IMG/VR virus record: IMGVR_UViG_2802429232_000005
Source of the DNA: a virus
Taxonomy: Duplodnaviria; Heunggongvirae; Uroviricota; Caudoviricetes
Strand: one strand, 5' to 3'
Length of the DNA: 5,910 nucleotides
Shown: piece by piece, positions 831 through 5,624 of the stretch
How the letters are laid out: the number at the start of each line of letters is the position of its first letter
How positions within the stretch are numbered: position 1 is the stretch's first letter
The notes under the pieces: generated by a model
What the model was told of the DNA's origin: nothing
What the model saw: only the letters and a program-made list of their open reading frames with translations
The model's database searches: none
Made by a program: the position numbers and the translations under genes

Positions 831-917
831 GTAAAAAGTGTACTCGGTACTGAACCTGAAAACTCACTGCCAAAACCACATTCACCGGAATAAAATCCTT
901 TTTCGCCTGTGCGTTAT

Positions 918-957
918 TGCGATAATAACACCATTAAGAAAACATCTTGTTTAAGGA
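918..957 (+). promoter_or_regulatory. Conserved leader module A: extended -10 (TGcGATAAT), AACA-tct-TGTT palindrome, SD AAGGA
   Basis: TGCGATAAT 918-926; palindrome 941-951; AAGGA 953-957, 7 nt before ATG 965. The module recurs upstream of other genes in the array. Confidence 0.5.
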
Positions 958-964
958 TTGCTTT

Positions 965-1294: not shown

Positions 1295-1303
1295 TCACAA
1301 CCA

Positions 1304-1322
1304 AAGCCAGCATTGCTGGCTT
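1304..1322 (+). other. GC-rich hairpin AAGCCAGCA / TGCTGGCTT downstream of the 109-aa gene (no clear U-tract)
   Basis: Inverted repeat 1304-1312 / 1314-1322; same AAG-palindrome-CTTAA style as the hairpins at 2926 and 3397. Confidence 0.45.
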
Positions 1323-2291: not shown

Positions 2292-2318
2292 AATGGCGCG
2301 TAAACCGCGCCATTTTAT
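2292..2318 (+). terminator. Rho-independent terminator (AATGGCGCG / CGCGCCATT stem, loop TAAAC, T-rich tail)
   Basis: 9-bp perfect stem 2292-2300 / 2306-2314, followed by TTATTA. Confidence 0.7.
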
Positions 2319-2325
2319 TATGCCC

Positions 2326-2392
2326 GATAACAATTTGTTTTCTGCCTTATCTGATTTGTGAAAATGATTTCACTGAAGCAACTTAATAAGGA
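2326..2392 (+). promoter_or_regulatory. Leader module E: GATAAC, AACAA-t-TTGTT palindrome, shared TGCCTTATCT 10-mer, GTGAAA-atga-TTTCAC palindrome, SD AAGGA
   Basis: Palindromes at 2329-2339 and 2358-2373; TGCCTTATCT 2343-2352 is identical to 3042-3051; AAGGA 2388-2392, 7 nt before ATG 2400. Confidence 0.45.
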
Positions 2393-2399
2393 AACCATC

Positions 2400-2774
2400 A
2401 TGGGACTTGATATCTATATCGAGACGCAGCCTAAAAACGATCTGAATAACGAGGTATCCAGAAAGCAGGTTGCTTACTTCCGTAAGTTCAATGCGCTCGT
2501 TGGGTGGATGGAGCGCAACGTAGGTGAAGTCGAAAATTGTGAGCTTTTAGAATTAACGATGAATGACATTTGCCTTCTGAAAGCTCATTTGATGCACATA
2601 AACGAAAGCAATTGCGAAGAGTACTTGCCTACCCGGGAAGGTTTTTTCTTCGGCAGTCAGGAGTACGACGAAGGTTACTGGCATGATGTGGGGGAGTTGA
2701 AAGAGCTTGTGGAAGATCTGATTAAGAACCACGACTTTCACAATAATAGACTGACCTTCTGCGCCTGGTGGTAA
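2400..2774 (+). CDS. Hypothetical small acidic protein (124 aa)
   Basis: ATG 2400 with SD AAGGA. The ORF-track start GTG 2358 lies inside the operator-like palindrome. Hand count about 23 D/E vs 11 K/R. Stop TAA 2772-2774. Confidence 0.6.
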   Translation: MGLDIYIETQPKNDLNNEVSRKQVAYFRKFNALVGWMERNVGEVENCELLELTMNDICLLKAHLMHINESNCEEYLPTREGFFFGSQEYDEGYWHDVGELKELVEDLIKNHDFHNNRLTFCAWW

Positions 2775-2776
2775 AT

Positions 2777-2920
2777 ATGGGCGATTTCAAGAAACGCCTG
2801 AAGGAGAGAGCCGAGATGGTCAGAAAGCGAAACGCCTCTTCTGTCATCAGATACGCAAGGCAGTTTAGTCGCAACAACAAATCAGTTGAGGAAAAGATCC
2901 TTAGCGTAATCGGGCGATAA
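2777..2920 (+). CDS. Hypothetical very basic small protein (47 aa), possibly translationally coupled to the upstream acidic gene
   Basis: ATG 2777 lies 2 nt after the upstream stop, with GGTGG 5 nt upstream. Hand translation MGDFKKRLKERAEMVRKRNASSVIRYARQFSRNNKSVEEKILSVIGR, stop TAA 2918-2920. Not in the ORF track, presumably below its length cut-off. The stop sits 5 nt before hairpin repeat 2926, the same spacing as stop 3391 to hairpin 3397. Confidence 0.4.
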   Translation: MGDFKKRLKERAEMVRKRNASSVIRYARQFSRNNKSVEEKILSVIGR

Positions 2921-2925
2921 TTATT

Positions 2926-2956
2926 AAGGCCACCAGCATTGGTGGTCTTAAATGAC
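2926..2956 (+). repeat. Hairpin repeat copy 1: AAGGCCACCA-gcat-TGGTGGtCTT + AAATGAC
   Basis: 10-bp stem (one G-T wobble) with 4-nt loop; about 90% identical to the copy at 3397-3428. Confidence 0.6.
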
Positions 2957-3041
2957 TTTTAATAACCGAAGGTTAGTTTGAAACCTGGCTATCAACTTCC
3001 AGAACCTTTCTTGTGTATTCAGCCTGTATTAACTTCTTTTA

Positions 3042-3102
3042 TGCCTTATCTACACTGCGATAATTACACCAACAAGAAAACAACATGTTTACGCAGTGAG
3101 GA
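3042..3102 (+). promoter_or_regulatory. Conserved leader module B: TGCCTTATCT, extended -10 TGcGATAAT, AAACA-aca-TGTTT palindrome, SD GAGGA
   Basis: TGCGATAAT 3056-3064; palindrome 3078-3090 (core AACATGTT is perfect); GAGGA 3098-3102, 7 nt before ATG 3110. Confidence 0.5.
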
Positions 3103-3109
3103 TATGCTC

Positions 3110-3391
3110 ATGACTGATTTCACCATTACCCCTAAAGCACAAAATGTATTTCTTGAATCATGGCTGGACTTGCCGGAAACAGAACAGCAAGAAATGGATC
3201 ATGTGGATTATGACGAGCAGGTAAGCACGCGATTCTTCCACTTTGAGGGATGCGTTTACGACATTGTCGACTTCATGCGAGATGACCGCTTCCCTGAATG
3301 GCACGCAAGCTATCCACTAAACGCCTTTGCCATGCTGATGATCCGTGTGGATGATTCAGGGGATACCATCGACATCGGTCTGCTCCACTAA
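3110..3391 (+). CDS. Hypothetical small, strongly acidic protein (93 aa); DNA-mimic-like composition
   Basis: ATG 3110 with SD GAGGA at 7-nt spacing. In-frame ATG 3104 is too close to the SD, and the track's TTG 2978 start would run through the promoter module. Hand count about 20 D/E vs 5 K/R. Stop TAA 3389-3391. Confidence 0.6.
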   Translation: MTDFTITPKAQNVFLESWLDLPETEQQEMDHVDYDEQVSTRFFHFEGCVYDIVDFMRDDRFPEWHASYPLNAFAMLMIRVDDSGDTIDIGLLH

Positions 3392-3396
3392 AGGCT

Positions 3397-3428
3397 AAGG
3401 CCACCAATGCTGGTGGCCTTAAATGACC
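3397..3428 (+). repeat. Hairpin repeat copy 2: AAGGCCACCA-atgc-TGGTGGCCTT + AAATGACC
   Basis: Perfect 10-bp stem with 4-nt loop, 5 nt after the stop codon; direct repeat of 2926-2956. Confidence 0.6.
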
Positions 3429-3520
3429 ATCCTGTTTCCCTCAGGCTAATAACACCAACCTCTTACCTCCAGGCAACCGACAAACCCACCTGTTCCCGTC
3501 CGGCTACCGCAACTTTCCAC

Positions 3521-3588
3521 TTTGACGCCTTATTCGTACAACGATAATTAATACCAACAAGAAAACAATTTGTTATTTACGATAAGGA
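3521..3588 (+). promoter_or_regulatory. Conserved leader module C: sigma70-like promoter TTTGAC-N16-GATAAT, AACAA-t-TTGTT palindrome, SD AAGGA
   Basis: TTTGAC 3521-3526, GATAAT 3543-3548; palindrome 3564-3574; AAGGA 3584-3588, 7 nt before ATG 3596. Confidence 0.55.
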
Positions 3589-3595
3589 ATTAATC

Positions 3596-4123: not shown

Positions 4124-4206
4124 GCCGCAGGGAAATTTTCAGAAACGGCAAGGAACGCATTCATGAGCCGACGGGAAACGGCCAGGATTTTTTCGGGAAA
4201 CGGCTG
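4124..4206. repeat. Second cluster of GGGAAACGGC-type direct repeats (4-5 degenerate units)
   Basis: cagggaaa (4129), cagaaacggc (4140), aggaacgc (4151), cgggaaacggcc (4172), cgggaaacggctg (4194). GCCGCAGGGAA at 4124-4134 also occurs at 1336-1346. Confidence 0.55.
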
Positions 4207-4666: not shown

Positions 4667-4689
4667 AAAAAAGCGCCCATAGTGGGCGC
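4667..4689 (-). terminator. Rho-independent terminator on the minus strand (GCGCCCA / TGGGCGC stem, loop TAG, T6 on the minus strand)
   Basis: Stem 4673-4679 / 4683-4689 preceded on + by AAAAAA 4667-4672; lies just downstream of the 76-aa gene stop. Confidence 0.7.
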
Positions 4690-4695
4690 TCGATT

Positions 4696-4926
4696 TTATT
4701 TATGTAAACTGATTTCAAATCCCATTTCTACAAACGCTTTTAACATTAAAAATATATCAGCGTCATTCACGTCTGCTTTTTTTCGCTCCTGGTCGCTCAA
4801 TAAGTCAATTTTGCGCGTCGTTTCATCTATAAGCTCGACTGCGCGCCCAGCGTAACCAGCGATCCCAGCGATGCGATTAACAAAATATTCATTGCGCACG
4901 TTAACGCCAGCGATAATCATAAACAT
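4696..4926 (-). CDS. Hypothetical small protein (76 aa)
   Basis: ATG (complement of 4924-4926) with SD AAGGAG (complement of 4934-4939) at 7-nt spacing. Flanked by near-identical terminator hairpins; AT-rich codon usage like the adjacent 216-aa gene. Confidence 0.6.
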   Translation of the reverse strand: MFMIIAGVNVRNEYFVNRIAGIAGYAGRAVELIDETTRKIDLLSDQERKKADVNDADIFLMLKAFVEMGFEISLHK

Positions 4927-4939
4927 GATTAAGCTCCTT

Positions 4940-4960
4940 AAAAGCGCCCATAGTGGGCGC
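4940..4960 (-). terminator. Rho-independent terminator on the minus strand between the 216-aa and 76-aa genes; near-identical to 4667-4689
   Basis: Stem GCGCCCA 4944-4950 / TGGGCGC 4954-4960, loop TAG. On the minus strand it is followed by TTTT and then immediately the AAGGAG SD of the 76-aa gene. Confidence 0.65.
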
Positions 4961-4973
4961 CAGATTCCATTAA

Positions 4974-5624
4974 TTACGCTTTGAAAGCATCAGCCAGATA
5001 GTTATAGAAATCATTTTTAATAAAGCGATATTGCTGCGTACCAGCTTTTGCGCTTCCCATTCCTTTGACTTTCTCAACAAGTCCAAGACGTTCGCAAAGA
5101 TTGATCAACTGGTTGGCTTGAGTATAGCCAGCGTCCAATTTAATTTCGCACGCTTTTTTAGCTTCATTCATTAAATCGAAAACAGCGCCATTAGTGAACG
5201 TGTCGATCTCGTCGTTAATCATATCGATTAAAGCGAATACACGAGATCCTGACATATCAGCGATGGAGTAAACGCATTTACCAGATTTAATTGATTTAAC
5301 CAGATAAACCAGTTTTTCCAGTGAATAACTATTAGTCATTGCATCACGAAAAAATACTTCTGGCGCTTGTTTACTTGCTTTAATCGCATAGTAGAAAACA
5401 GAGCATAATTTTTCATCTTCTACAGCGTTTACAACGTTGTTGATGAAGTAAGCAAGTTTAGTGGTCGCAGCTTGCATATTTGCTTTGTCTGCTTTAGTGT
5501 GCGTACCATTTTTATAATGTTCGTTATATGTTTGAGTTGCCAGATCTGCTTTTTCGCGCAGCTCGTCGGATACAATGGATGCAGCTTCAATGATGGATTT
5601 TTTAGAAATGATAATGTTAGCCAT
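4974..5624 (-). CDS. Hypothetical protein (216 aa), Lys/Ala-rich, AT-rich codon usage; family not recognised
   Basis: ATG (complement of 5622-5624) with SD AAGGA (complement of 5633-5637) at 8-nt spacing; long uninterrupted ORF; terminator directly downstream. Confidence 0.7.
   Translation of the reverse strand: MANIIISKKSIIEAASIVSDELREKADLATQTYNEHYKNGTHTKADKANMQAATTKLAYFINNVVNAVEDEKLCSVFYYAIKASKQAPEVFFRDAMTNSYSLEKLVYLVKSIKSGKCVYSIADMSGSRVFALIDMINDEIDTFTNGAVFDLMNEAKKACEIKLDAGYTQANQLINLCERLGLVEKVKGMGSAKAGTQQYRFIKNDFYNYLADAFKA

Follow-up and report, generated by a model that had tools for sequence, protein, structure and literature searches.

Gene array and hairpin pair of the locus

We analyzed a stretch of 5,910 nucleotides (nt) from a virus of the Caudoviricetes (IMG/VR record IMGVR_UViG_2802429232_000005), here called the window, in which two direct copies of a short hairpin bracket a single small gene. 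The window matches Escherichia phage Cyrano (plasmid pLF82 of E. coli LF82) with 97% identity across 99% of its length; Cyrano belongs to the SSU5-like phage-plasmids (PMC9928086). Further matches lie in hundreds of plasmids of E. coli, Klebsiella, Enterobacter, Yersinia, and Salmonella, and the locus was found in 238 of 5,426 complete E. coli genomes, in every case on a plasmid. The plus strand encodes small open reading frames (ORFs) in tandem, of 109, 103, 131, 124 plus 47, 93, and 160 amino acids (aa), and the minus strand encodes two more. Their Cyrano counterparts, CYRAN_104 to CYRAN_113, are every one annotated as hypothetical. Neither the window proteins nor the cargo proteins that occupy the array in its relatives matched Pfam or NCBIfam above cut-off; the cargo proteins had no meaningful PDB sequence match, and their PHROG matches were to families of unknown function. 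No tandem repeats were found in the window.

The two hairpins (Table 1) start 471 bp apart, and each begins 5 nt past a stop codon, as the initial annotation had stated. The stem sequence that it gave is correct for copy 2; the right arm of copy 1 is TGGTGGTCTT, with a G·U wobble, and not TGGTGGCCTT. A core of GGCCACC/GGTGGCC lies within a helix of 10 to 12 bp that is closed by a 4-nt loop, so that the whole hairpin spans 24 to 28 nt. With up to 3 mismatches allowed, GGCCACCANNNNTGGTGGCC matched the window twice, compared with 0.01 matches expected by chance. The predicted RNA folding energies are -17.4 kcal/mol (z = -4.1) for copy 1 and -19.6 kcal/mol (z = -3.3) for copy 2. As a direct repeat, the copies are 84% identical (32 nt); as an inverted repeat, they are 96% complementary (27 nt). 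The inverted score is the higher one because the 4-nt loops, GCAT in copy 1 and ATGC in copy 2, are reverse complements of each other. Both copies share the tail AAATGAC, and their orientation is therefore direct. Between them lie a spacer, a promoter-like leader, and the 93-aa ORF, in this order. Alignments show the spacer in loci with the two-hairpin architecture as well as in L034 and L112. A related hairpin that the initial annotation had placed at 1304-1322, after the 109-aa gene, also proved real.

Table 1. Coordinates of the array features discussed in the text (window numbering)
Feature	Position	Strand	Remarks
Leader of 109-aa gene	885..960	+	Same leader family as the two below; leader-to-leader insertion/deletion junction in relatives at 933-953
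Related U-tract-poor hairpin	1303..1322	+	After 109-aa gene; -12.4 kcal/mol
Leader of 124-aa gene	2317..2399	+	Other TGCCTTATCT copy at 2343-2352; inverted palindrome copy at 2326-2342
124-aa ORF	2400..2774	+	PHROG 7971; slot 1 cargo
47-aa basic ORF (CYRAN_109)	2777..2920	+	Directly 5′ of hairpin copy 1; TAA at 2918-2920
Hairpin copy 1	2926..2956	+	AAGGCCACCA-GCAT-TGGTGGTCTT-AAATGAC; putative 3′ end of 124-aa plus 47-aa unit
Spacer	2957..3022	+	66 nt; seen wherever the hairpin-1 slot precedes a second cassette
Leader of 93-aa gene	3023..3109	+	TGCCTTATCT at 3042-3051, TGcGATAAT (extended -10-like), palindrome GAAAACAACATGTTT, ribosome-binding site
93-aa acidic ORF	3110..3391	+	PHROG 1845, function unknown; cargo between hairpin copies; TAA at 3389-3391
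Hairpin copy 2	3397..3427	+	AAGGCCACCA-ATGC-TGGTGGCCTT-AAATGAC, perfect stem; putative 3′ end of 93-aa cassette
C-rich, G-poor noncoding block, then leader of 160-aa gene	3428..3595	+	42% C and 13% G over 3428-3530
Second hairpin family (AAAGCGCCCATAGTGGGCGC), copy 1	4669..4703	-	Unrelated to first family; brackets 76-aa minus-strand gene
Second hairpin family, copy 2	4940..4974	-	35-nt direct repeat with copy 1

We then determined how widely the hairpin is distributed. The 108-kb Cyrano genome holds the two copies and one weak relative, a canonical terminator located between the genes for RuvC and ribonucleotide reductase. Scanning IMG/VR for the exact pattern gave 27 stretches, all in contigs with this locus. 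Among 185,579 species-representative genomes there were three matches, two of them in Kluyvera contigs (~100 kb) and one in a metagenome-assembled genome labeled Bacillota. The contig of the latter (L115; JAEWTL010000044.1, 29.6 kb) has two hairpins 471 bp apart and is probably a mis-binned enterobacterial phage-plasmid contig. The initial annotation had listed a repeat family among its options. Because the hairpin is confined to this locus in both collections, and Cyrano has 2 copies per 108 kb, we ruled out a dispersed repeat family of the REP/BIME-like or MITE-like kind. An Rfam scan gave no match at an E value of ≤1, and the papers on SSU5 phage-plasmids that we consulted did not describe the hairpins or this hotspot. 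The presence of only two copies per genome, with the element absent elsewhere, favors a rival account, namely, that the hairpins are ordinary gene-end terminators, that the pair arose by a single local duplication or insertion, that neither hairpins nor leaders take part in recombination, and that breakpoints fall there through the loss of intragenic recombinants.

Selection on the hairpin and its place in the transcript

We compared 34 distinct variants of the hairpin. Standard pairs occupied 90.6% of the pair cells, a level reached by 0 of 500 shuffles; the number of cells changed on both sides and the covariation score were each likewise reached by none of the 500. The number of pairs with a two-sided change (reached by 262 of 500 shuffles) and the number of further pair types (94 of 500) were not significant. 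The hairpin structure outscored every slid register. Reading the 7-bp core on the plus strand gave 17 G·U pairs and 3 unpaired cells, compared with 2 G·U pairs and 18 unpaired cells on the minus strand. Full compensatory changes were seen (GGCCATCA..TGATGGCC and AGCC..GGCT), with paths that run from C-G through U·G to U-A and from G-C through G·U to A-U. Pairing on the plus strand is kept by way of G·U intermediates, which points to selection on the plus strand as a single strand, most simply as mRNA.

This result bears on the possibility that the palindromes act as DNA, such that extrusion of a hairpin or cruciform stalls replication forks or is cut by SbcCD- or RuvC-type enzymes, creating hotspots of break-induced recombination irrespective of any function in RNA. 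The element does encode SbcCD-like and RuvC-like proteins, and its reverse-complement loops (GCAT/ATGC in the window; CTGC/GCAG and ATAGT/ACTAT in relatives) are a signature of template switching or arm exchange. However, stems of 10 to 12 bp are short for extrusion, and single substitutions are tolerated only if plus-strand pairing is kept, which indicates selection on a single strand and not on a cruciform. Moreover, the leader-to-leader and microhomology junctions described below require no palindrome. We consider this explanation improbable. Loops that form reverse-complement pairs (GCAT/ATGC and CTGC/GCAG) on otherwise identical stems were also seen in relatives L005, L030, and L054, indicating that the loop has been inverted in place, by template switching or by arm-to-arm exchange. 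Together with the ATAGT/ACTAT pair, these inverted loops suggest that intrapalindrome template switching takes place at these sites as well.

Each hairpin has the form by which intrinsic terminators are recognized, a G+C-rich stem of 5 to 14 bp with a loop of 3 to 8 nt just past a stop codon. A terminator scan passed copy 1 marginally, through a TTTT located 5 to 8 nt downstream, and did not flag copy 2. Published transcriptome sequencing (RNA-seq) of LF82 gives normalized reads of 5.7 for CYRAN_108 (124 aa), 57.9 for CYRAN_109 (47 aa), 6.7 for CYRAN_110 (93 aa), and 25.5 for CYRAN_111 (160 aa) (PMC9928086, S1 Table). On these per-gene values, RNA is ~9-fold lower past hairpin copy 1 (57.9 to 6.7). 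The buildup of RNA 5′ of hairpin 1 and the drop across it fit either a 3′ end or a protected fragment. From the structure and the per-gene RNA levels, the hairpins are best seen as transcript 3′-end structures, and we infer that they serve as terminators or stabilizers. The initial annotation, noting that strong U-tracts are missing, had set the hairpins apart from plain terminators. The absence of U-tracts stands, but the contrast was too sharp, in that the strand-specific covariation and the published RNA-seq both indicate transcript 3′-end structures. Two further observations favor the account of ordinary terminators: position-equivalent elements after the neighboring genes are canonical terminators, and relatives have similar stems with real T-tracts elsewhere.

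In all five conditions of the published LF82 data, CYRAN_109 RNA was ~10 times as abundant as that of the upstream gene of the same apparent operon and that of the downstream gene. This RNA may be a stable 3′ fragment or a small RNA ending at hairpin 1, and not only an mRNA. The 47-aa ORF was intact in 30 copies, with 2, 6, and 9 variable sites by codon position, a pattern that is compatible with coding but weakly so; a stable noncoding 3′ fragment would be the alternative. We considered whether the 47-aa and 93-aa units are paralogues, the former being degenerate; their similarity was confined to the first codons (ATG-nnn-GATTTCA), a motif that is also the junction in Klebsiella plasmids (see below).

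In E. coli, the 3′ ends of Rho-dependent terminators are trimmed back to a protective stem-loop that lacks a U-tract. The hairpins resemble such ends in being stable, lacking a U-tract, and lying just past a stop codon, and the tract after copy 2 has the most C-rich, G-poor composition in the window; in contrast, the spacer that follows copy 1 is T-rich and not C-rich. The excess of C over G is highest in the window at 3428-3530. Because this tract directly follows copy 2, Rho-dependent termination and trimming back to the hairpin are plausible there, with the tract as a putative Rho-loading site. The noncoding block, of which copy 2 forms the left edge, has a mean column identity of 85% in loci whose proteins are only 67 to 82% identical, and its conservation exceeds that of the genes on either side. 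Candidate roles are Rho loading, regulation of the 160-aa gene, and a noncoding RNA. In most relatives outside E. coli, the left-arm motif of the hairpin, GGCCACCAGC, is found inside the C-rich block.

Gain, loss, and exchange of cargo in relatives

We compared the locus with its relatives at 80 loci, taken from IMG/VR and plasmid records that are not phylogenetically independent of one another. Plasmids pEC21Z137-115K (E. coli) and p1538007_2 (Shigella sonnei) lack exactly the 471-bp unit, and each retains a single hairpin that has the copy-1 flank upstream and the copy-2 flank downstream. The two-hairpin form occurs in 99 of the 238 E. coli carriers; ~40% of all E. coli carriers have one hairpin and lack precisely this unit, and with it the 93-aa ORF. 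In an evenly spaced sample of 60 E. coli records, 25 had two hairpins, 26 were shorter by 471 bp, 6 had the 93-aa unit only, and 3 had other cargo. A second insertion/deletion (indel) was found in E. albertii plasmid pEA11_2, from which 699 bp are missing. This segment holds the 124-aa gene, the 47-aa ORF, and hairpin 1, and the junction falls inside the leader repeat TGCCTTATCT. In Klebsiella plasmids, the 124-aa gene is joined directly to the 93-aa gene, with the junction at the microhomology ATG-nnn-GATTTCA.

Other relatives carry unrelated genes in the same slots. A cassette of 1069 bp places a 310-aa gene, together with a leader of its own, between two hairpins; it follows the 47-aa ORF in L016 and the 93-aa gene in L054. 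X1-X2, a cargo of two genes, occupies slot 1 in pRM9131-1 (L112), slot 2 in L034, and the sole slot in pM-64-197 (L008); in pRM9131-1 it takes the place of the 124-aa ORF. In L042, the slot is held by a 232-aa gene. Altogether, we counted at least 17 gene orders among the 80 loci, produced from nine cargo genes set between leaders and hairpins. Nearly all 80 loci have copy 2 at ~177 nt upstream from the 160-aa gene, regardless of which gene is found to its left. Breakpoints in blastn alignments with the window clustered at leaders (933/953, 1381, and 2350-2365 paired with 3031-3037, the last being found in many relatives), at hairpins (2956 paired with 3396-3406), just 3′ of hairpin 2 (3419-3442), and at two other places (1842, just 3′ of the terminator of the 103-aa gene, and 2789 paired with 3110). 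Hence, the proposal of the initial annotation that gene modules are shuffled between conserved junctions is supported by the clean 471-bp and 699-bp indels and by the unrelated genes found in the same slots; different genes do sit between hairpin copies in relatives (X1-X2, the 310-aa gene, and the 232-aa gene).

Single-hairpin plasmids have six sequence variants of the hairpin. In L027, the whole copy-1 stem-loop, including the GGTC wobble, is followed by the copy-2 flank, and the junction must therefore be in the tail; among the single-hairpin variants, L027 is the one for which the position was resolved. In neighbor-joining trees of both flanks, two-hairpin and single-hairpin plasmids were intermixed. 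The indel and swap events are thus recurrent, or the flanks recombine freely.

The second hairpin family, on the minus strand, shows the same behavior. The distance between its copies in relatives is 247, 271, 307, or 496 bp, some relatives have the element in triplicate, and the genes enclosed differ. The loop of one copy is inverted (ATAGT versus ACTAT), and in many loci the homology with the window ends exactly at 4943. These findings bear on the account in which the hairpins are ordinary terminators that happen to lie at viable breakpoints. A single duplication or insertion agrees poorly with indels that run exactly from repeat to repeat and leave one chimeric copy, with the same cargo appearing in different slots and always from leader to hairpin, with the interleaving of both architectures on the flank trees, and with similar behavior in an unrelated hairpin pair on the opposite strand. 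We therefore regard that account as unlikely. Taken together, the comparisons support a role for the hairpins and the shared leaders as module boundaries, where small genes are gained, lost, and swapped. The anatomy of the array, the strand-specific selection on structure, and the clean indels and swaps of cargo at these junctions, with their recurrence, are what the data show directly.

Small opposite-strand genes were found inserted immediately 3′ of hairpin 2 in some relatives (L044:5588-5847, L033:5502-5843, and L079:5490-5843). In these loci the hairpin stands between convergent genes, like a bidirectional terminator.

The leaders

The initial annotation had reported that TGCCTTATCT is common to 2343-2352 and 3042-3051. 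We confirmed this and found that the pair lies within a 34-nt repeat of 74% identity. It is the leader of the 124-aa gene that forms the junction of the 699-bp indel. The leader palindrome had 8 matches in the window, compared with 0.32 expected. In the form GAAAACA-N3-TGTT(T), it is located ~30 to 40 nt upstream of the starts of array genes (938-951, 1423-1439, 2326-2342, 3076-3092, and 3561-3574), and there are ~15 similar sites across Cyrano, upstream of terS, parA, the helicase gene, cobT, the RNR-beta gene, and others. The palindrome resembles an operator for a global regulator or else an element of the 5′ untranslated region that these genes have in common. Many relatives have an extra cassette of ~360 bp upstream of the 109-aa gene (e.g., L005:1177-1534) that is not in the window. 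It consists of a 71-aa ORF and a canonical terminator, GGCCACCAGCACGGTGGCTTTTG, and lies between two leader copies (window site 933-953).

Proposed mechanism of exchange

We favor an explanation, to which we assign a probability of about 0.7 as a whole, in which the window is part of an SSU5-like phage-plasmid that is hyperplastic, with small transcription units in tandem, and in which recombination driven by homology between their common regulatory ends shuffles leader–ORF–hairpin cassettes. Each unit would consist of a promoter-like leader, one or more ORFs of unknown function, and a stem-loop a few nucleotides past the stop codon. The two hairpins would be paralogous 3′-end elements of adjacent units, acting as weak terminators or as ends that block exonucleases. 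Because they are conserved across units and across cocirculating plasmids, the hairpin plus tail (~32 to 40 bp) and the leaders (~75 bp) would offer patches of homology for recombination. Unequal or interplasmid homologous recombination, or slippage, could then delete, insert, or replace whole cassettes and leave the neighboring genes unharmed, and a gene between two direct hairpin copies would be the product of such a patch-to-patch exchange. Within one molecule, the outcome would be a deletion and possibly a circle; between coresident plasmids, it would be an insertion or a replacement, for which only one crossover would need the short patch, and the second could fall at any point of the long conserved flank. 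The role of the hairpin as a recombination seam would be a by-product of its conservation.

We infer that the exchange is driven by homology and is not targeted by an enzyme because the joins run exactly from repeat to repeat, their positions appear to vary, leaders and microhomologies are used as well, and there is no local recombinase; in particular, junctions at seemingly different points within the repeat argue against site-specific exchange. The Cyrano annotation includes a T4-like recombination set, namely, UvsY, a gp32-like single-stranded DNA-binding protein, a RecA/UvsX-like protein, UvsW, SbcCD, and RuvC. The initial annotation had raised the prospect of a cognate recombinase or integrase nearby. 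None was found in or beside the array, and the only annotated integrase of Cyrano is at 41 kb, compared with 97 kb for the locus (~55 kb away).

Alternatively, the hairpin could be the site of a site-specific or structure-specific recombinase that moves the cassettes, comparable to integron attC sites or to the hairpins of HUH/Y1 transposases. Direct hairpin copies do bracket single genes, 4 to 9 nt past the stop codon, the folding is strand specific, as in attC bottom strands, and the core of the stem is strongly conserved. In contrast to such sites, the hairpin is a perfect helix of 10 to 12 bp with a 4-nt loop, no extrahelical bases, and no GTTRRRY box, and it has no Rfam family match. The distant position of the Cyrano integrase also argues against a dedicated enzyme, as do cassettes that bring their own promoter-like leaders, junction positions that vary by lineage, and other junctions that lie at leaders or at microhomologies of 7 to 10 nt and not at hairpins. 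We consider a recombinase site very improbable.

Several points weigh against homology-driven shuffling of leader–ORF–hairpin cassettes as we have described it. The longest exact match between the hairpin copies is 10 to 11 nt in the window and 17 nt in L028; RecA-type recombination usually calls for more than 10 to 11 nt, and the actual route may be slippage or annealing. The tail, UUAAAUGAC, has no U-tract right after the stem in either copy, and the LF82 RNA-seq values are given per gene, so 3′ ends are not located by them. A simple sigma-70 scan of the window did not flag the leaders as promoters, which is why we call them promoter-like only. Each event may have been either a gain or a loss, and intergenic junctions could in part reflect the survival of viable recombinants and not targeting. 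Finally, because the records are not independent, there were fewer events than the counts of loci would suggest.

Comparison with known systems

Among described systems, the closest is that of the promoter-early stem-loop (PeSL) cassettes of T4-type phages, in which promoter-plus-stem-loop motifs flank the ORFans of hyperplastic regions (Arbiol et al. 2010, PMC2839356; Comeau et al. 2014, PMC4122927). Close relatives of those phages differ by having either an ORF between two motifs or one chimeric motif; crossovers have been mapped within the motif, including the loop, and no dedicated recombinase is known (PMC2839356, PMC4122927). The present case works alike but is outside the PeSL family. 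As with PeSL cassettes, small ORFs of unknown function are found in a hyperplastic region (at least 17 gene orders in 80 loci), an ORF between two motifs alternates with a single chimeric motif (the 471-bp indel and the 699-bp leader-to-leader indel), and the host element is annotated with a T4-like recombination apparatus. Unlike PeSL hosts, however, this element is an unrelated temperate phage-plasmid of the siphovirus type and not a T4-like myovirus. The sequences are unrelated as well, with stems of GGCCACC/GGTGGCC here and typically GGGG..CCCC in PeSLs. The hairpin and the promoter-like leader are both conserved but are 75 to 170 nt apart, whereas a PeSL is one composite of ~100 bp; the hairpin has no U-tract, and the leader contains a palindromic site, operator-like in appearance, that recurs genome-wide. 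In addition, the promoter, the terminator, and minicircles have been demonstrated for PeSLs, whereas here the putative promoter (TGnGATAAT) and the putative 3′-end role are read from sequence and per-gene RNA-seq.

The morons of lambdoid phages are units of promoter, gene, and terminator that are not thought to rely on conserved flanks (PMC2839356), and CYRAN_109 has been scored as a moron from lysogen RNA-seq (PMC9928086). The cassettes resemble morons in being self-contained transcription units between unrelated genes. They differ in that their flanks are common to the units and coincide with the junctions.

Integron attC sites are imperfect palindromes of 57 to 141 bp with R and L boxes (GTTRRRY) and extrahelical bases (PMC9892861). 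The array shares with integron cassettes single genes that are bounded by hairpin-forming sites and a folding that is strand specific. In contrast to integrons, the array lacks an integron integrase and attI, its cassettes are equipped with promoter-like leaders, and the junction position is variable. We ruled out an integron or attC origin on the basis of the short perfect hairpin without a GTTRRRY box, the lack of a nearby integrase, and the lack of an Rfam match.

SSU5-like phage-plasmids are common in clinical Enterobacteriaceae. For their small-gene arrays, the comparisons point to a concrete sequence-level rule of diversification, by which whole cassettes would be exchanged at conserved leaders and 3′ hairpins; the principle was known from virulent T4-type phages and would here extend to a temperate phage-plasmid. 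The elements that we flag are a 3′ hairpin without a U-tract and under RNA-type selection, an unusually well conserved C-rich block downstream of it, and a genome-wide operator-like palindrome. The indel polymorphisms are possible typing markers, and the slots are natural places to seek newly acquired accessory genes. A broader and more tentative proposal, which we think has perhaps less in its favor than against it, is that SSU5-like phage-plasmids, those of Klebsiella, Salmonella, and Yersinia pestis among them, exchange standardized leader–ORF–hairpin cassettes in a PeSL-like system. The U-tract-less hairpin would then be a transcript end, possibly Rho associated, and units would be excised, perhaps as circles, and reinserted at appreciable frequency by the element's own T4-like machinery. 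If this were true, these plasmids would have a private, rapidly reshuffled pool of small accessory genes.

Other features of the locus

The motif GGRAAMGGYY occurs 7 times in the window, compared with 0.17 occurrences expected. It forms arrays at 474-600 and 4141-4205, with a spacing of ~20 to 30 nt, that flank the small-gene array on both sides. In layout, these repeats are iteron-like or centromere-like. In many RefSeq plasmid records, the 93-aa acidic protein carries the label "ABC transporter." Because the label has no Pfam or NCBIfam support, it looks like a propagated misannotation. Lastly, in pEC21Z137-115K (L004:2070-2767), the homologue of the 131-aa gene is interrupted by an IS1B transposase.

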